The translations under genes and the position numbers were made by a program. From contig JAZOVP010000010.1 of the NCBI GenBank assembly GCA_045658765.1, positions 1-48,506 on the forward strand: a DNA stretch of 48,506 nt, in the 5' to 3' direction. The notes beneath the pieces were generated by a model that did not search any database, was not told the DNA's origin, and worked only from the letters and a program-made list of their open reading frames with translations. Shown here one piece after another: positions 1-7,213 of the stretch (within the stretch, counting starts at the first letter, position 1; the number at the start of each line of letters is the position of its first letter). This DNA comes from Eubacteriales bacterium (lineage in GTDB: Bacteria; Bacillota; Clostridia; Oscillospirales; SIG627).

Positions 1-69
1 TAAGTCAAAAACAACTTATTTAGACGTGCTTATAATAAAATTTGCCGCAAATTTCCCTAAAATACATGT

Positions 70-110
70 TGGTCCTAACTTGACACACTCATGAGCGGAT
101 CGCCCATCGT
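70..110. mobile_element. Putative att junction of an element inserted in spoIVB (element body outside the window)
   Basis: Abrupt switch from AT-rich non-coding DNA (1-90) to spoIVB codons at 91, with the palindrome CTCATGAG (88-95) across the junction. No integrase is visible in the window. Confidence 0.5.
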
Positions 111-219
111 GCAAAACGGCAAACTCATCGGCGCCGTAACCCACGTTCTCATCAGCGATCCCACCCGCGGCTACGGCATTTTCATCGAAAATATGCTCAG
201 CTCTATGCCCGCCGCCTGA
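91..219 (+). pseudogene. spoIVB: 3' fragment (42 codons) of SpoIVB peptidase S55, truncated at the catalytic motif
   Basis: Translates [42 protein letters not shown], the conserved SpoIVB C-terminus. The expected upstream GIVQG is absent and there is an in-frame TAA at 76-78. Confidence 0.88.
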
Positions 220-259
220 AATCCATCTTCTCTTTTTTCTCCTAAAAAGAGAAATTGAA

Positions 260-294
260 AAAAACAACCTCGGCTTTTTTGCGAGGTTGTTTTT
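260..294. terminator. Bidirectional intrinsic terminator, CAACCTCG palindrome family copy 1
   Basis: AAAAACAACCTCG-gcttttttg-CGAGGTTGTTTTT between the convergent spoIVB fragment and araC. Confidence 0.8.
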
Positions 295-297
295 CTT

Positions 298-1059
298 TTA
301 AAAGGTATTGATCAGGGTTTTGGAATAGGTGAGCTTAAATTCTGTGGGGGTGATGCCTTCGTGGTATTTAAAATATTTCAAAAAGTATTTATAATCCTGA
401 AAACCCGCCTTTTGCGCCACCTCGGCAAGGGGCAAGGCATCCTCGAGCAAAAGCTGCTTGATAAAGCCGATCCTTTCGCGGTCGATATAGCTTTTCAAAG
501 ACTTTTTATAAAAGGATTTGAAAATGCGATTCAAATAATCCTCATTATAGCCAAAATGCTGAGCAAGATCCTTCACTTGGATCGCGCGATCGCGATTTGC
601 CTTGATCCAAGCCGATGCCTTTTCCACCATATAATCGCTATCATAAGATAAATTTTCGCAAAAAAGCTCAATCAAAATCAGTCGGGTAAGATAATCCAAA
701 CTCTCCGCGGGCTTGCGATCAATGGTATACGATAAAATCTGCTTGAAAAGAAGAAGCAGGTTATAACTATTTTCAATTTTTAAATGCTTTTTCCCCTCGG
801 GAATTGCCGAAATCCCCGAAAAATGAAGCCAGAAAAACTGCGTGTCGCGGCTTTTTTTGGTGCCAAAATGCCGATTTTTCGGCTCCAGAATCAAAACTTC
901 ATTTTCCCCCAAAGCATATTCCGCGCCGCCCTCATTGAGATACACAAATCCCTTGGTAACAAATAAAATCTCGTATGTTTTTTCTTTGCGATCGGGATGA
1001 CACCATTCATCCCTCGAAATAAATTTTCCGCAGCTAATATGCGTTACGCCTTCAAACAT
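298..1059 (-). CDS. AraC/XylS family transcriptional regulator
   Basis: 253 aa. N-terminal cupin-like domain and C-terminal double HTH (LAQHFGYNEDYLNRIFK; VAQKAGFQDYKYFLKYFKYHEGITPTEF). Confidence 0.92.
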   Translation of the reverse strand: MFEGVTHISCGKFISRDEWCHPDRKEKTYEILFVTKGFVYLNEGGAEYALGENEVLILEPKNRHFGTKKSRDTQFFWLHFSGISAIPEGKKHLKIENSYNLLLLFKQILSYTIDRKPAESLDYLTRLILIELFCENLSYDSDYMVEKASAWIKANRDRAIQVKDLAQHFGYNEDYLNRIFKSFYKKSLKSYIDRERIGFIKQLLLEDALPLAEVAQKAGFQDYKYFLKYFKYHEGITPTEFKLTYSKTLINTF

Positions 1060-1064
1060 AGTCG

Positions 1065-1131
1065 GATTTTCACCCCTAATCTACTGATTTTCGAGTTGTT
1101 TGAACCCCCGTTCTTTTCTATAATCATTATA
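1065..1131. promoter_or_regulatory. Overlapping divergent promoters with a putative AraC operator
   Basis: Plus strand: TTGTTT(1096)-17-TATAAT(1119). Minus strand: TATAAT at 1126-1131. GATTTTC direct repeat at 1065 and 1086, 21 bp apart. Confidence 0.5.
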
Positions 1132-1178
1132 TAGAACCCGCGCAAAAATTACAAGAGCAAGTTTTCGGAGGAAAGAAA

Positions 1179-2963
1179 ATGAAAAATCTTTTTTACACCG
1201 CCACGGCGCTCAACAACGGATTTTGGAAGTATTACGAAACCCTCAATCGCACCGTTACCGTGAAAGCAGTATACGATCGCTTCAAGGAAACAGGGCGCTT
1301 CGATGCCTTAAAATGCAACTGGCGTGAGGGCATGGAACATCAGCCGCACGTATATTGGGATTCCGATATTGTGAAATGGATGGAAGGCGCCGCCTACCTT
1401 CTGAAAACAAGCCCCGATCCCGAGCTTGAAAAAATCGTGGATGAATTGATTGATACCATCGCCAAAAATCAGCGCGAAGACGGCTATTTTAATTCCTATT
1501 TTCTTTCGGTTGCCCCCTCTAAAATTTTCTCCGATCGGAATGAACACGAGCTTTACTGCATCGGCCACATGATCGAATGTGCCATCGCCTACCACCGAGC
1601 CACCGGCAAGGATAAGCTCCTTTTGGTGGTGAAAAAAGCGGTGGATCTGATTTATAAAGTTTTTGTGGAAGAAGAAAGCGCGGGCTTTGTTACCCCCGGG
1701 CATGAAGAAATCGAACTTGCCCTTTTAAAGCTTTATCTTTATGAAGGAAATCAAAAGCATTTATCCTTAGCGCAGTTTTTCATTGATCAAAGAGGCGCAA
1801 ACGAAAAAGATTCTATGAAATCAGATCAGGTGCAGAGCGCCGAGCCCGTGCGCGAGATCACCGAAGCGGTGGGCCATAGTGTGAGAGCGGGCTATTTATA
1901 TACCGCCATGGCAATGCTCGGAAAAATCACGGGAGATCAGGCGCTTTTAGATGCCTGTCATCGCGTGTATGAAAACATCACCAATTTCAAAATGAGCATC
2001 ACCGGCGGCATCGGCGCGGATCACAACGGCGAAAGATTCACCTATGCCTATGATCTTCCCAACCGCGAAATCTACAACGAAACCTGCGCCGCCATTTCCC
2101 TTGCCATGTTTGCAGGCGAAATGCAGGAGCTTGCCCCCGATTCCAAATATGCCGATCTGATCGAGCGCATCTATTATAATGCCTTCCTTTCGGGCATATC
2201 CATCGGCGGCGATGAATTCTTCTATACCAATCCCCTCGAAATCGATCGCAAAAAGCATAAAAGAAAAGCTTGGCAGCCCATTTATCGCAGAGTGAAAGTT
2301 TTTGATTGTTCTTGCTGCCCGCCGAATGTGGTGCGTATGCTTGCCACCATTCCGCGCTATGCCCATTCCAAAGAAGGCAATTCCATTTGGTGCCATCAAT
2401 TCTTCCCCGGCACCACCGAATTTGAAATCGGCGGCGAAAAAGCCACCCTCACCCTGAAAACCGAATATCCCACCAATGGCAAACTCTGCTTCACCTATCA
2501 CGGCAAAAGCGCCAAAATCTATGTGCGCATTCCCGATTGGTGCATCGAATTTGAAGGCGAAACCGAAAACGGCTATGCCAAATTCGAAGTGGAAAACGGT
2601 GCAAATTTCGAAATTGATCTGCCCTTGAAGCGCCATATCATCGAATCCAATCCCGCCGTGCAAGATAATGCAGGCCGCTTTGCCATCACCTACGGGCCTT
2701 TTGTTTACTGCATGGAAAGCATCGACAACGGCGAAAACCTGCGCGACATCACCTTAATCGAAAATGCCCCCTTTGAAATCAAAATCGAAGGCAATCCCGC
2801 CGTGCCCGTGCTCTATATCCCCGCAGAAAGAAGAAAGGCATCCGATCGCCTTTATTCCATCAAATCCGAGGAAAGAGAATCCTTCACCGCGCGCCTGATT
2901 CCTTATTTTTCCTTTGCCAACCGCGAAGAAGCCGATATGCTCATCTGGACAATGGTAAAATAA
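1179..2963 (+). CDS. Glycoside hydrolase family 127 (beta-L-arabinofuranosidase-like, DUF1680)
   Basis: 594 aa with motifs WDSD, HELY, GHEEIELAL, GHSVRAGY, YNETCA and CSCCPPN. RBS GGAGG. No obvious signal peptide. Confidence 0.9.
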   Translation: MKNLFYTATALNNGFWKYYETLNRTVTVKAVYDRFKETGRFDALKCNWREGMEHQPHVYWDSDIVKWMEGAAYLLKTSPDPELEKIVDELIDTIAKNQREDGYFNSYFLSVAPSKIFSDRNEHELYCIGHMIECAIAYHRATGKDKLLLVVKKAVDLIYKVFVEEESAGFVTPGHEEIELALLKLYLYEGNQKHLSLAQFFIDQRGANEKDSMKSDQVQSAEPVREITEAVGHSVRAGYLYTAMAMLGKITGDQALLDACHRVYENITNFKMSITGGIGADHNGERFTYAYDLPNREIYNETCAAISLAMFAGEMQELAPDSKYADLIERIYYNAFLSGISIGGDEFFYTNPLEIDRKKHKRKAWQPIYRRVKVFDCSCCPPNVVRMLATIPRYAHSKEGNSIWCHQFFPGTTEFEIGGEKATLTLKTEYPTNGKLCFTYHGKSAKIYVRIPDWCIEFEGETENGYAKFEVENGANFEIDLPLKRHIIESNPAVQDNAGRFAITYGPFVYCMESIDNGENLRDITLIENAPFEIKIEGNPAVPVLYIPAERRKASDRLYSIKSEERESFTARLIPYFSFANREEADMLIWTMVK

Positions 2964-3005
2964 TCTGCTTTTCCCTCTCCCCCGCCCTTGGGTTTTGAAA
3001 ACATA

Positions 3006-3034
3006 TTGCATTCCATCCTTTTTTGCGATACAAT
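3006..3034 (+). promoter_or_regulatory. sigma-A-type promoter of the small ORF
   Basis: TTGCAT-17 bp-TACAAT. Confidence 0.6.
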
Positions 3035-3059
3035 AAGAAAAAAGCTCGGAGGATGAAAA

Positions 3060-3239
3060 ATGGCAAAAAACAATCGTTTTATCAAAACCTATTCTCAAGG
3101 GGGTTTTAGCCCCATGGAAATTTGGGTGGATGCAGAAACCGGTGTTCATTATCTTTATCACCCGTCGGGCTATGGCGGGGGACTCACCGTTTTGCTCGGT
3201 GCCGACGGAAAACCCGTGATCAAGCCCGTGGAACAATAA
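3060..3239 (+). CDS. Small protein, DUF6440-like (59 aa, not in the ORF track)
   Basis: MAKNNRFIKTYSQGGFSPMEIWVDAETGVHYLYHPSGYGGGLTVLLGADGKPVIKPVEQ*. RBS GGAGG at 3048, with its own promoter and terminator. Confidence 0.8.
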   Translation: MAKNNRFIKTYSQGGFSPMEIWVDAETGVHYLYHPSGYGGGLTVLLGADGKPVIKPVEQ

Positions 3240-3258
3240 TTTCTTTTCAAAAATCTAA

Positions 3259-3292
3259 AAAAGCAACCTCAGCAAAAGCGGAGGTTGCTTTT
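3259..3292 (+). terminator. Intrinsic terminator, palindrome family copy 2 (variant)
   Basis: AAAAGCAACCTC-agcaaaagcg-GAGGTTGCTTTT. Confidence 0.75.
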
Positions 3293-3307
3293 CTTTTTCT
3301 TTGGCAT

Positions 3308-3342
3308 AAAAAAATGCCCAAGCACCCGAGGGTGCTTGGACA
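3308..3342 (-). terminator. gap terminator
   Basis: CCAAGCACCC/GGGTGCTTGG stem followed by a T7 tract on the minus strand. Confidence 0.75.
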
Positions 3343-3361
3343 CATAAAAGCTTTGTATTTC

Positions 3362-4369
3362 TTAGATTTCTGCGAAATACTTGATGGTGCGAACCATCTG
3401 GCTGGTGTAGGAGTTTTCGTTGTCGTACCAAGAAACAACCTGTACCTGATAGGTATCGTCATCAATCTTAGCAACCATGGTCTGGGTAGCGTCGAAGATG
3501 GAACCAGCGGTAGCGCCGATGATATCGGAAGAAACGATTTCGTCGGTGTTGTATTCGAAGGATTCGGTAGCAGCAGCTTTCATAGCAGCGTTGATGCCTT
3601 CAACAGTAACATCCTTGCCCTTAACCACAGCGATCAGAATGGTGGTAGATCCGGTGGGGGTGGGGATTCTCTGTGCAGCGCCGATGAGCTTGCCGTTGAG
3701 TTCGGGGATAACAAGGCCGATTGCCTTTGCAGCACCGGTGGAGTTGGGAACAATGTTCACAGCGCCGGCTCTTGCTCTGCGGAAGTCGCCTTTTCTGTGG
3801 GGACCGTCGAGGATCATCTGGTCGCCGGTGTATGCGTGAACGGTGGTCATGATACCGCTCTGGATGGGACCGAAATCATTGAGTGCCTTTGCCATGGGAG
3901 CAAGGCAGTTGGTGGTGCAGGAAGCTGCGGAAATTACGGTGTCATCCTTGGTGAGGATGTTGTGGTTTACATTGTAAACAACGGTGGGAAGATCGTTGCC
4001 TGCGGGAGCAGAGATAACAACCTTCTTTGCGCCAGCGGTGATGTGAGCGCTTGCCTTTGCCTTGGAGGTATAGAAACCGGTGCATTCGAGAACAACGTCA
4101 ACACCGTATTCGCCCCAGGGAAGCTTGGAAGCATCGGGCTCTGCATAGATTTTGATTTCTTTTCCATCAACGATGATGGAGTTTTCGGTAGCTTCAACAG
4201 TCTTGTTGTAGCGGCCCTGAGCAGAGTCGTATTTGAGAAGGTGAGCGAGCATTTTGGGGTTGGTGAGGTCGTTGATGGCAACTACTTCGTAGCCTTCAGC
4301 AGCGAACATCTGGCGGAACGCAAGACGGCCGATACGACCAAAACCGTTAATGGCAACTTTTACAGACAT
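3362..4369 (-). CDS. gap: Glyceraldehyde-3-phosphate dehydrogenase, type I
   Basis: INGFGRIGR, catalytic [13 protein letters not shown]. Confidence 0.98.
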
Positions 4370-4416
4370 TTTGGTATCTCCTTTATGTTAAAAATTTAAT
4401 TTTTTTACCAAACATT

Positions 4417-4445
4417 AGTATAGTATATTTTTCCAAAGAATACAA
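4417..4445 (-). promoter_or_regulatory. sigma-A-type promoter of gap
   Basis: TTGTAT-17-TATACT on the minus strand. Confidence 0.55.
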
Positions 4446-4472
4446 GAGAAAATTTAAATTTTTTCATTTTTG

Positions 4473-5252
4473 TTACATTTGGAAAAACCGAAGGGCATTT
4501 TCCCTTGTGATTTGGATCATTTCATCAGTGGAAACCCCGTGAATCTCGGCAAGACGAGCCGCGGTGGCAAAAGCAAAATCCGATCGGTTTCTTTTCCCGC
4601 GATACGGCACAGGCGCAAGATACGGCGCATCGGTTTCGATCAAAAGCCGATCGAGCGGCACCACCGCCGCCGCTTCGGGCACAATCGAAGCATTTTTGAA
4701 GGTTAGGGTGCCCGAAAATGAAATGTGCCATCCCATTTTCACATACTGCCTTGCCATTTCCTTCGAGCCCGAAAACGAGTGCATCACACCCTTCACATCG
4801 GGGAATTTGCGCACAATATCGAAAACATCGCCATGGGCATCGCGATCGTGAATGCAAACAGGATATCCCGTTTCGCGCGAGAGCTCCATCAGGCGGCAAA
4901 ACACATCCTTTTGCACCTCGCGGGGGGCATTTTCATATTTATAATCCAGCCCAATCTCGCCAATGGCAACCGCCTTCGGATGGCAAAGCATTTCTTTGAG
5001 CGCGGGAATCGAATGTTCATCGAAGGTATGCGCATCCTGCGGATGAATGCCAACTGCCGCATAGAAAAGATCATACCGATCGGCAAGATCAAGGCAAATG
5101 CGGCTGGTGGGAATATCGCATCCGATATTCACCACATATTCCACCCCAACAGGGCAGATTTCGCTTTTTTCGCGAAGGCATTTCACCACCTCGTCAAGAT
5201 CCTCGGCAAAGCGCGGATCATCGTAATGCGCGTGGGAATCAAAAAGCCCCAT
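4473..5252 (-). CDS. tatD: TatD family deoxyribonuclease
   Basis: DSHAH, GIHP, GEIGLDY, ETDAPYL. Overlaps the metG stop by 1 nt, the conserved metG-tatD order in Bacillota. Confidence 0.95.
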   Translation of the reverse strand: MGLFDSHAHYDDPRFAEDLDEVVKCLREKSEICPVGVEYVVNIGCDIPTSRICLDLADRYDLFYAAVGIHPQDAHTFDEHSIPALKEMLCHPKAVAIGEIGLDYKYENAPREVQKDVFCRLMELSRETGYPVCIHDRDAHGDVFDIVRKFPDVKGVMHSFSGSKEMARQYVKMGWHISFSGTLTFKNASIVPEAAAVVPLDRLLIETDAPYLAPVPYRGKRNRSDFAFATAARLAEIHGVSTDEMIQITRENALRFFQM

Positions 5253-7213
5253 TATCCAACCACTGCGCCCGCAGGCGTTTCGGGATCAAGCGTGATAAGG
5301 CGCACCACCCCATCGGCTTCGGTGGAAAGAATCATACCGTGGGATTCCAGCCCCATCATCTTGCGGGGCAGAAGATTTTTCACCACAATAATCTTTTTGC
5401 CAATCAGTTCGGCAGGTTCATAATATTTTGCAATGCCCGAAAGCACTTGGCGCTCTTCCGTGCCAAGATCAAGGCGGAAGCGAAGCAGCTTTTCGCTCTT
5501 TTCCACCTTTTCGCATTCCAGCACCTCGGCACACACAAGATCGATCTTCATAAAGTCATCGAAGGTGCAGGGCTCTTTCGGAGCGGCGGGAGAAGCTTCT
5601 TTTGCTTTTTTGGCTTCTTTTTCAGCTTTTTTCTTTGCTTTTTCTTTTGCCTCGAGCTCTTTGATTAAAGCATCGCCGTCGATTCTTGCAAAAAGCGGCT
5701 GGCAAGCAGAAACTTCAAATGCCTCAAAAAGGCCAAACGGAGCGGTAACCCCATCAAAATTGCTTGCCGCACCCTCGCCCATCAAAAGCGCAATTTTTTC
5801 TGCGGTTTCGGGCATAAAGGGAGTGAGCATCACGCCAATGCGGCGAATCGCCTCCAAAAGATTATAAAGCACCTCTTCAAGGCGGCCCTTTTGGCTTTCG
5901 TCTTTGGCAAGCGCCCAAGGCATGGTTTCATCAATATACTTATTGCATCTCTTTGCAAAATCCATCACGGCATTCACACTATCGCCGATATGAAGAGTAT
6001 CAATTCCCTCCCCAAGAGCGGCAAAGGTTTTTTTCTCGCAAGCAATCAAATCCAAATCGATCGGATCGGTAAATTCGGCGGGCTTTTTCACCTTGCCGTC
6101 AAAATATTTCACCGCCATCGCAACACTGCGGCTCACAAGGTTTCCGAGGGTATTGGCAAGATCGGCATTGAATTTTGCGATCATGGCTTCATAGGTGATC
6201 GAGCCATCCTGCGCGAAGGGAATTTCGGAAAGAAGATAGTATCTCACCGCATCCACTCCAAAAATTTCGGCAAGTTCATCCGCATAAAGCACATTGCCTT
6301 TGGATTTGCTCATTTTATCTTCGCCAACAAGCACCCAAGGATGCCCCAGCACGCGCTTGGGCAAAGGCAGATCGAGCGCCATCAAAAGAATGGGCCAATA
6401 AATCGTGTGGAAGCGCACAATATCCTTTCCGATCACGTGCAAATCTGCAGGCCAATAGCGTTCAAAATTCTCGCCGCTTCCATCGGGATGATAGCCGAGC
6501 GCGGTGATATAATTCGAAAGCGCATCAATCCAAACATAAATCACATGGCGAGGATCATCCTTCACCTTCACGCCCCAAGAGAAGGTGGAGCGGGAAACGC
6601 AAAGATCGGCAAGGCCGGGCTTAATAAAATTATTGATCATTTCCGCCTTGCGGGAAAGCGGAGCAAAAAATTCGGGATTTTCTTCATAATACTGCACAAG
6701 GCGATCGGCGTATTTGGAAAGGCGAAGGAAGTATGCCTCCTCCTTAGCATCCACGCAAGGTCTGCCGCAATCGGGGCAAAGCCCGCCCTCTTTTAATTGG
6801 CTGGCAGTGAAAAACGATTCGCAAGGCACGCAGTATTTGCCCTCGTATTCGCCCTTATAAATATCGCCCTTTTCCAAAAGGCGCTGGAAAATACGCTCCA
6901 CTGAGGCCTCGTGATCGGCATCGGTGGTGCGGATAAAACGATCGTAAGAAATATTCATGCAATCCCAAACCGCTTTGATCTCGGCGGCAATGCGATCCAC
7001 ATATTCCTTCGGGGTATCCCCCGCTTCCTTTGCAAGCTCCTCGATCTTCTGACCGTGCTCATCGCTTCCTGTGAGATAAAACACATCAAATCCCATCATT
7101 CGCTTGAATCTTGCAATCGCATCGGCAAGCACAGGATCATACACATTTCCAATATGGGGCTTGCGCGAAGTATAGGCAATCGCGGTGGTGATATAGAATT
7201 TTTCTTTTTGCAT
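5252..7213 (-). CDS. metG: Methionine--tRNA ligase
   Basis: HIGN and KMSKS motifs, Zn knuckle CVPC/CPDC, C-terminal tRNA-binding domain. Confidence 0.98.
   Translation of the reverse strand: MQKEKFYITTAIAYTSRKPHIGNVYDPVLADAIARFKRMMGFDVFYLTGSDEHGQKIEELAKEAGDTPKEYVDRIAAEIKAVWDCMNISYDRFIRTTDADHEASVERIFQRLLEKGDIYKGEYEGKYCVPCESFFTASQLKEGGLCPDCGRPCVDAKEEAYFLRLSKYADRLVQYYEENPEFFAPLSRKAEMINNFIKPGLADLCVSRSTFSWGVKVKDDPRHVIYVWIDALSNYITALGYHPDGSGENFERYWPADLHVIGKDIVRFHTIYWPILLMALDLPLPKRVLGHPWVLVGEDKMSKSKGNVLYADELAEIFGVDAVRYYLLSEIPFAQDGSITYEAMIAKFNADLANTLGNLVSRSVAMAVKYFDGKVKKPAEFTDPIDLDLIACEKKTFAALGEGIDTLHIGDSVNAVMDFAKRCNKYIDETMPWALAKDESQKGRLEEVLYNLLEAIRRIGVMLTPFMPETAEKIALLMGEGAASNFDGVTAPFGLFEAFEVSACQPLFARIDGDALIKELEAKEKAKKKAEKEAKKAKEASPAAPKEPCTFDDFMKIDLVCAEVLECEKVEKSEKLLRFRLDLGTEERQVLSGIAKYYEPAELIGKKIIVVKNLLPRKMMGLESHGMILSTEADGVVRLITLDPETPAGAVVG

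Follow-up and report, generated by a model that had tools for sequence, protein, structure and literature searches.

A recurrent att-type junction at the active-site codons of spoIVB in gut Clostridia

The first 219 bases of the window, by which we mean the whole stretch of 48,506 nt that was analyzed, most probably represent an attR-type junction of a gene cassette that is docked in the active-site codons of the sporulation gene spoIVB and supplies a spare 3' end of that gene. The feature is real and recurrent, its reading as an att site is right, and relatives exist in which spoIVB is split. At the level of sequence, the junction recurs behind a conserved arm, this genome has an intact spoIVB with a duplicated 3' end, and relatives contain tandem arrays of recombinase-less units, elements bearing large serine recombinases (LSRs) at the same arm, and cassette interiors that are nearly identical across species.

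The junction in the window and the intact gene

Base 1 of the window is base 1 of contig C10, in an assembly of 198 contigs (1.5 Mb, 83% complete). The open reading frame at positions 91 to 219 (+) is a spoIVB 3' end that opens at the Met of the motif GMSGSP. Its product of 42 residues matched Pfam Peptidase_S55 (PF05580) over model positions 175 to 210 with 68.6 bits, the cut-off being 25. The preceding DNA, positions 1 to 90, is unrelated and AT-rich, with an in-frame TAA at 76 to 78 and no second copy in the 198 contigs, where the best hits were chance matches of 17 nt or less. Folding of the sequence downstream revealed two hairpins at 228 to 294 (+), at -28.8 kcal/mol and z = -4.46, of which the second is followed by a U-run; the displaced fragment thus closes with a normal stop and a terminator, which it shares with a convergent AraC-family gene. 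A simple terminator scan missed these hairpins, and an Rfam search of positions 1 to 400 returned only hairpin- or terminator-type matches below threshold. An earlier note on this DNA had described a clean spoIVB 3' end, running from the Met of GMSGSP to a normal stop and terminator, behind unrelated AT-rich sequence with a stop codon, and this description holds.

According to the proposed reading, the window would begin with the end of the cassette interior, continue through a recombinase arm and a crossover dinucleotide, and then enter the chromosome's former spoIVB 3' end. The presumed interior is represented by its last 66 bases (positions 1 to 66), which are AT-rich, noncoding, unique in the assembly, and cut by the contig end. 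An A-rich stretch preceding the arm is weakly conserved among junctions, and an exact scan of metagenome contigs with positions 21 to 66 gave 0 matches. The arm, a putative P half-site of 25 nt (TGTTGGTCCTAACTTGACACACTCA), occupies positions 67 to 91 (+); it is conserved at the junctions of relatives and has its sole copy in this assembly here. The likely crossover dinucleotide is the TG at 92 to 93 (+), the second and third bases of the Met codon in G-M-S-G-S-P, as placed by comparison with the junctions of relatives in which the gene is split. The displaced 3' end, referred to here as B', extends from the AGC codon of the motif Ser to the TGA stop (94 to 219, +). We take this Ser to be the catalytic residue, as in Bacillus subtilis SpoIVB. 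The earlier note had also pointed to CTCATGAG at the junction. It does lie there, at 88 to 95, with CTCGTGAG elsewhere. However, the A at 91 belongs to the arm and is a G in most relatives, so the palindrome is incidental, the exchange point being the TG.

The displaced 3' end at 94 to 219 is probably not expressed, judging from its surroundings: no Shine-Dalgarno-like sequence precedes its ATG, and the TAA at 76 to 78 is in frame. Some displaced copies in relatives contain stops or have a Cys codon in place of the Ser.

A complete spoIVB is present on another contig of the same genome, C157. It encodes 426 amino acids with PDZ and S55 domains (PF05580, 267 bits) and the motif GGIVQGMSGSP, with no stops. 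Positions 91 to 197 (+) of the window form a direct repeat of 107 nt that is identical at 107 of 107 positions to the 3' part of this gene (C157, 305 to 411, -). Upstream of the repeat, C157 carries the spoIVB 5' part, whereas the window carries unrelated DNA. Beyond it the tails differ, reading SSMPAA* in the window and ETAQRVTEEQKLKEAS* on C157, where a terminator comes next and then a convergent AraC-family gene truncated by the contig end. The spoIVB 3' end is therefore present twice in this genome, as a working copy and as a displaced one.

The earlier note had proposed two ways of understanding the junction: either spoIVB is split and needs rebuilding, or the element brought a replacement 3' end and used the active-site codons as a landing pad. 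It had suggested looking for the 5' part of the gene, which is found on C157 and continues into an alternative MSGSP tail. The intact gene, the identical 107 nt, and the different tail behind them argue that the element brought a replacement 3' end. The split-gene reading does not describe this genome, since its 426-amino-acid spoIVB is whole; the insertion lies in the 3' part of a conserved gene whose reading frame was kept. As the cassette interior between C157 and C10 is absent from the assembly and the two contigs are not joined by sequence, their position on either side of one cassette is our inference. For the AraC fragment that terminates C157, a 70% relative was found in another locus (L071), in a different layout, and the N-terminal part of the fragment had no match on the other contigs of the bin.

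The genes upstream of spoIVB, for a 194-amino-acid membrane protein and a 445-amino-acid protein (C157, 1617 to 3604; loci L012 to L036 in relatives), are syntenic across the genus. Downstream of spoIVB everything differs, and the variable region begins exactly at the spoIVB 3' end.

To the right of the window junction, the flank at 298 to 2963 consists of an AraC-family regulator gene (298 to 1059, -) and a GH127 beta-L-arabinofuranosidase-like gene (1179 to 2963, +), as assigned by Pfam. Its gene make-up is cassette-like. No arm or fragment was detected behind it in positions 2940 to 3400, nor elsewhere in the assembly beyond the window junction, and for this reason the flank was not placed in the array. 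It showed no synteny with the DNA downstream of spoIVB in 10 regions from nine same-genus genomes. In the same 10 regions (seven fragment-free), no decayed arms or fragments were found beside spoIVB. The hairpin at 249 to 299 (AAAAACAACCTCG..CGAGGTTGTTTTT) has 13 more matches of 77 to 89% identity across the assembly, at C10 positions 17474, 21755, 28353, and 45253 and on contigs C5, C117, C122, C134, C137, and C157. This family may represent either a common kind of terminator or a small repeat.

Recurrence of the breakpoint and split genes in relatives

The C157 protein was compared with 41 genomes, namely, this genome (G000) and 40 relatives. spoIVB was found in 40 of them, and seven of the 41, including this one, gave extra short matches starting at residue 373 to 375. 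A Pfam search of 51 genomes of the family recovered 20 fragments that start at position 175 or 176 of the PF05580 model, distributed over 14 genomes. On nine contigs such fragments lay on the same strand as the full spoIVB and 3' of it. The fetched loci captured 32 sites, 13 intact genes and 19 displaced fragments. These fragments had been found by protein homology, and 18 of the 19 are preceded by the arm, 25 to 27 nt with the consensus TGTTG(G/T)(T/C)CC..TTGACA..CTC(G/A)TG. The sole fragment without it (G018:C5, locus L037, near 3301, -) starts at the same Ser codon, ..ATTACAACAGA|AGCGGC, and may stem from another type of element or from a deletion.

A pattern scan through 185,579 species, each represented by one genome, returned 102 stretches, and the figures given here derive from the 80 that were listed. 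Arm and fragment occurred together in at least 75 cases (75 of the 82 matches within the listed stretches), all of them in Clostridia: Oscillospiraceae, Congzhengia, Ructibacterium, Flavonifractor, Dysosmobacter, and others, one cultured isolate among them. The remaining seven listed matches fell in other phyla by chance. At 85 distinct junctions, the information content of the arm is 1.5 to 2.0 bits per position, compared with about 0.3 bits in the preceding DNA, and the fragment displays a coding pattern with free third positions. Part of the arm is fixed by the scan pattern itself, which accounts for some of the arm's conservation in the large scan; the homology-based sample (18 of 19) is the unbiased one. 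Among 49 further arm-bearing genomes, 43 have an intact spoIVB followed by up to four fragments; in three (G079, G081, and G090) the gene ends at residue 375 to 377, and another three gave an ambiguous picture.

This recurrence, which the earlier note had proposed to look for in other genomes, bears on whether the junction could be an assembly artifact that joins unrelated DNA to a piece of spoIVB. The junction does lie at a contig end of a 198-contig metagenome-assembled genome, and the repeat is about the size of a read. However, the 25 bases before the break match a motif that recurs at this point across many independent assemblies, and some displaced fragments lie in the middle of contigs of 80 to 380 kb. 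Mid-contig junctions in independent assemblies make a chimeric contig end unlikely, and we consider this explanation hardly credible. The same recurrence upholds the earlier proposal of a right att site whose element lies to the left of the window, with positions 67 to 91 as the conserved arm. Of the findings that the note had named as refuting its view, the lack of a 5' part, of a recombinase, and of recurrence are all contradicted, as the 5' part exists, relatives have recombinases beside the site, and the breakpoint recurs.

Plasmid and phage collections yielded matches in one Subdoligranulum replicon and in three virome scaffolds labeled "UNVERIFIED Bacteriophage sp.", one of which contains an intact spoIVB. 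Another of these three scaffolds, MT836038.1 (L191), carries an LSR triplet A-B-C followed by arm and spoIVB fragment at 1007 to 5863; rather than a phage, it seems to be bacterial DNA that includes one end of a conjugative element. As both this record and the scaffold with the intact gene look bacterial, neither is evidence of a free circular form. A search for sequencing runs containing the window found only two gut metagenome runs, with 8% of the sampled words, which gave, over window positions 1 to 3000, short contigs with spoIVB of other organisms. Gut metagenome contigs that match the fragment, with loose ends at window position 96, extend leftward into another arm variant, ..CCTACTCGACAACAGCATG, which suggests more site diversity in animal gut samples.

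Using phmmer, LSR genes were detected directly before the arm and on the same strand at 5 of 73 loci; a sixth locus has another LSR in the vicinity. Four genomes with such loci and a cultured isolate (G067 to G071) were followed up. In all five, spoIVB matches only to residue 376 or 377 and the 3' fragment is on another contig. The split 5' part reads ..GGIVQGM and then enters element DNA, with a stop 13 codons on. Together with G079, G081, and G090, a truly split spoIVB is thus found in eight relatives, and an intact SpoIVA gene is present in 5 of 5 of G067 to G071. The left junction of the split gene contains a 25-nt arm ending in GGGACAACA, which is an imperfect inverted copy of the right arm, agreeing with it at 16 of 25 mirrored positions, and TGTTGTCCC occurs at the outer ends of both arms. 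In four of the five split genomes TG is the only sequence common to the left and right junctions; in G067 the common core is ATGTCCG. These junctions suggest an attP of 25 + TG + 25 (52 bp) and a crossover within the codon for Met, which immediately precedes that of the motif Ser. The layout of about 50 bp, with two imperfect inverted half-sites and a 2-bp crossover, was found in split-gene relatives, and the window has its right arm.

In loci L168/L169 and L170 to L177, the right arm contains TTGACA, 7 nt ahead of the TG, and the left arm contains TATAAT, 9 nt past it. Because the two hexamers are on opposite arms, a consensus -35/-10 pair with a spacing of 18 nt would form in the excised circle alone. 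The circle joint resembles a promoter created at the junction and directed into the conjugation genes. A further reading of the arm, as an integron attC-like hairpin, had been prompted by paired changes in L059 (TGTTAT..ATAACA). It was dropped, since the commonest variant, ..GACATCA, breaks the pairing of TGTTGTC with GACAACA and the mirrored left arm explains the arm better.

The elements at this site in G067 to G071 are conjugative, with TrbL, TraG/VirB4-like, and DUF6100 genes. They carry two or three LSR paralogues with a DUF4368 tail, in the order A-B(-C), before attR. An LSR gene lies next to the site in G037 and in G067 to G071, and the G037 recombinase is nearest to group B, at 35 to 38% identity. 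The earlier note had asked whether a recombinase is adjacent. In relatives one is, at the 5 of 73 loci and in G037, but this 83%-complete assembly contains no LSR related to the att-linked ones. The sole LSR of the bin, on contig C38, is 22 to 30% identical to them, and the cassette of this genome is unassembled.

Such conjugative elements, found at the site in 5 of 5 followed genomes, raise the question of whether positions 1 to 90 could be the right end of one that splits spoIVB in part of the population, with C157 stemming from an element-free strain or from element-free cells, in which case the two contigs would not form a single array. C157 and C10 both stop near the repeat, as expected where strains differ. 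However, past the repeat C157 shows a nonsyntenic, cassette-like start, with its tail, terminator, and convergent AraC gene. The arm variant of the window, TGTTGGTCCTA.., is that of the recombinase-less arrays in G004, G003, G013, G063, and G037, whereas four of the five conjugative elements have the arm TGTTGTCCCATA.. and that of G067 reads ..CTAC... Moreover, the bin contains neither a copy of the left-hand arm (arm') nor a related LSR. We regard this explanation as quite improbable and favor a docked cassette.

Cassette units and their proposed movement

In relatives, one to four small recombinase-less units follow spoIVB, each closing in arm and fragment. Up to four fragments occur in a row, for example in G101:C15, so that tandem units are bounded by repeats of the target 3' end. 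Twenty units bounded on both sides were annotated, from G003, G004, G013, G023, G037, G044, G047, G050, G059, G063, and G101. Nineteen of these have no Pfam match to a recombinase, integrase, or transposase, and the same number have no LSR gene next to the site. The 15 units with measured ends are 2.2 to 6.1 kb long. Nearly all units encode one regulator (of the AraC, LysR, DeoR, IclR, AsnC, SorC, or HTH-BadF/G type) along with one to four enzymes or transporters, mostly catabolic. The enzymes include a glycyl-radical enzyme and its activase, FAD oxidoreductases, Fe- and Zn-dependent alcohol dehydrogenases, aldolases, aminotransferases, ornithine cyclodeaminase, and glycoside hydrolases.

The twentieth unit, an 11-kb island in G037, differs from these; it is a recombinase-bearing member with the arm-TG-B' layout, in which a gene for a 594-amino-acid LSR comes first, 16 nt past the spoIVB stop, and a replacement 3' end is supplied. 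This gene is on the spoIVB strand, and the 16-nt gap (L031, G037:C14, 1945 to 1961) leaves no room for a hairpin. The arrangement hints that the LSR could be cotranscribed with spoIVB and, hence, expressed in the forespore. The first unit of the G080:C65 array (L188, 4155 to 6518) is noncatabolic, with Fic/DOC, DUF4417, and DUF6883 genes, and behind the array lies an AAA_21 (AbiEii-like) gene; the site thus also accepts defense-like or toxin-antitoxin-like cargo. A tail-switching or shufflon reading of the repeats was dropped, given their direct orientation and the shortness and lack of conservation of the tails.

In our proposed mechanism, the docking site would be the attB of an LSR family aimed at the spoIVB codons for G-M-S-G-S-P. 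A circle carrying arm-TG-B' that crossed over at the TG would leave the spoIVB 5' part, TG, the circle's own B' with its tail, the cassette genes, the arm, TG, and finally the old B' with the old tail. Integration of such a circle would produce exactly C157 followed by C10. The working gene on C157 would then consist of the 5' part, TG, and the cassette's 3' end with a new tail and terminator, followed by the convergent AraC-family gene, and the cassette-borne copy would now serve instead of the old spoIVB 3' end. As the working gene would again be a complete attB, more units could enter beside spoIVB and push older ones outward. Recombinase-less arm-TG-B' cassettes might enter and leave the regenerated attB with the help of an LSR acting in trans, like ccr-less SCC elements at rlmH, and gene conversion or homologous recombination would homogenize the repeats afterwards. 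This would mean that an LSR recombines the arm-TG-B' site, formally an attR, with attB. We know of no canonical LSR that recombines attR with attB in the absence of a directionality factor.

One unit, encoding a LysR regulator, a Zn-dehydrogenase, an aminotransferase, and a glycine-transporter-like protein, occurs at different ranks in different arrays, second in G080 and first in G093 and G059, which is consistent with stacking next to spoIVB. Over about 4.1 kb its interior is 98 to 100% identical between G080 and G093, which are two species, and about 86% identical to that in G059. Between G080 and G093, the spoIVB 5' parts and the distal flanks gave no alignment. This near identity in two species and at different ranks is the one indirect sign of mobilization in trans, which we infer by analogy.

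The ends of the unit behave differently from its interior. Its first 200 nt or so (its own spoIVB 3' end and tail) are 68 to 84% alike between species, and its last 130 nt or so together with the arm are 83 to 87% alike. With ends at 68 to 87% and an interior at 98 to 100%, homologous exchange or conversion at the repeats fits as well as or better than transfer from TG to TG. The main rival is that homologous exchange moves the cassettes by itself. The arms would then be relics of one old LSR integration, and the spoIVB 3' repeat would serve as portable homology, with Campbell-type or double-crossover recombination spreading and stacking the cassettes and no site-specific step. The B' copies point the same way, in that copies within one genome are often far more alike (54 to 99% identity, median 81%) than copies between genomes (median 69.5%, maximum 90.5%). 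The most alike are the pair in this genome, at 99% over the first 105 nt and 107/107 over window positions 91 to 197. In addition, most arrays have no nearby LSR, and in G023, with at least four fragments, no LSR match was detected at all. Gene conversion or homologous exchange does act on the repeats, to judge by these identities, and homologous exchange alone may move cassettes. However, several observations speak against recombination by homology alone: nearly every junction retains a 25-nt noncoding arm with freely variable DNA in front of it, all fragments begin at the same codon, and the LSR-bearing island of G037 has exactly the same arm-TG-B' layout. As a complete explanation, we judge exchange by homology alone to be unlikely and retain site-specific docking followed by homogenization of the repeats.

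Relation to known systems and significance

The nearest analogue is SCC, including SCCmec and the ccr-less pseudo-SCC elements, which use CcrAB or CcrC at rlmH/orfX in staphylococci. Both systems use a serine-recombinase site within the 3' region of a conserved gene and restore its frame, and both have paralogous sets of recombinases and tandem stacks in which many units have no recombinase and are separated by direct repeats of the target 3' end. Unlike SCC, the site described here lies in a sporulation protease gene, cut at the catalytic motif about 125 nt before the stop, in gut Clostridia; its cargo is mostly catabolic and self-regulated, its repeat is far longer than SCC repeats, and mobilization in trans is presumed by us.

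Elements that intervene in sporulation genes include skin in sigK, SPbeta in spsM, gin in gerE, vfbin, and vrin. In B. subtilis, the spoIVB product is made in the forespore. According to PMC4191935, the described intervening elements lie in mother-cell genes and their excision is confined to the mother cell. The spoIVB site resembles skin, SPbeta, and gin in its LSRs, in having a sporulation gene as the target, and in the real split in eight relatives. However, those elements occupy mother-cell genes, whereas spoIVB is a forespore gene and is unsplit in this genome.

Like integrons, the spoIVB arrays have a fixed dock beside a resident gene and a row of recombinase-less cassettes, each ending in a recombination site, and the same cassette appears at different ranks in different genomes. 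Unlike integrons, they have no IntI, attC hairpin, or common promoter, and consist of multigene units with their own regulators, separated by a coding repeat of about 125 nt. No Phage_integrase-type match was found among 121 open reading frames scanned around the arrays, and the repeat appears, from its sequence, to combine a protein-binding-type arm with coding sequence. tRNA and tmRNA islands and the tycheposons of Prochlorococcus are similar in that the element carries a copy of the target 3' end and partial target repeats separate arrays, but they use tyrosine recombinases and RNA genes, compared with a serine recombinase and a protein-coding active site here. Tn5397 (TndX) and Tn4451 (TnpX) resemble the elements of the relatives in pairing conjugation genes with DUF4368-tailed LSRs; the latter elements differ in having two or three LSR paralogues in fixed order A-B-C by attR and a single conserved protein-coding target. 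A full-text literature search on spoIVB as an integration site, judged partly by title, found no paper on this site among the hits listed.

The site appears to be a widespread hotspot in uncultured gut Clostridia, where species stack and trade ready-made, regulated catabolic modules, among them glycyl-radical enzymes with activases, glycoside hydrolases, dehydrogenases, and aminotransferases. It also provides a natural set of serine-recombinase att sites, with a protein-coding attB and an attP that can be defined, by our reading, at 52 bp. The relatives with a split gene, one cultured isolate among them, are organisms in which it can be tested whether a sporulation gene that acts in the forespore can be interrupted and yet used. 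We advance only tentatively the wider view that the catalytic codons of spoIVB anchor a cassette platform run by LSRs and, in addition, that the parent conjugative elements, which split this checkpoint protease gene in species that retain sporulation genes, would have to be excised in the forespore, the germ-line compartment, for the cell to sporulate, to be reintegrated on germination or lost. If this were true, gut Clostridia would possess an integron- or SCC-like system for trading self-regulated catabolic modules between species, and the split gene would represent a heritable or reversible developmental rearrangement, unlike the cases that are restricted to the mother cell.
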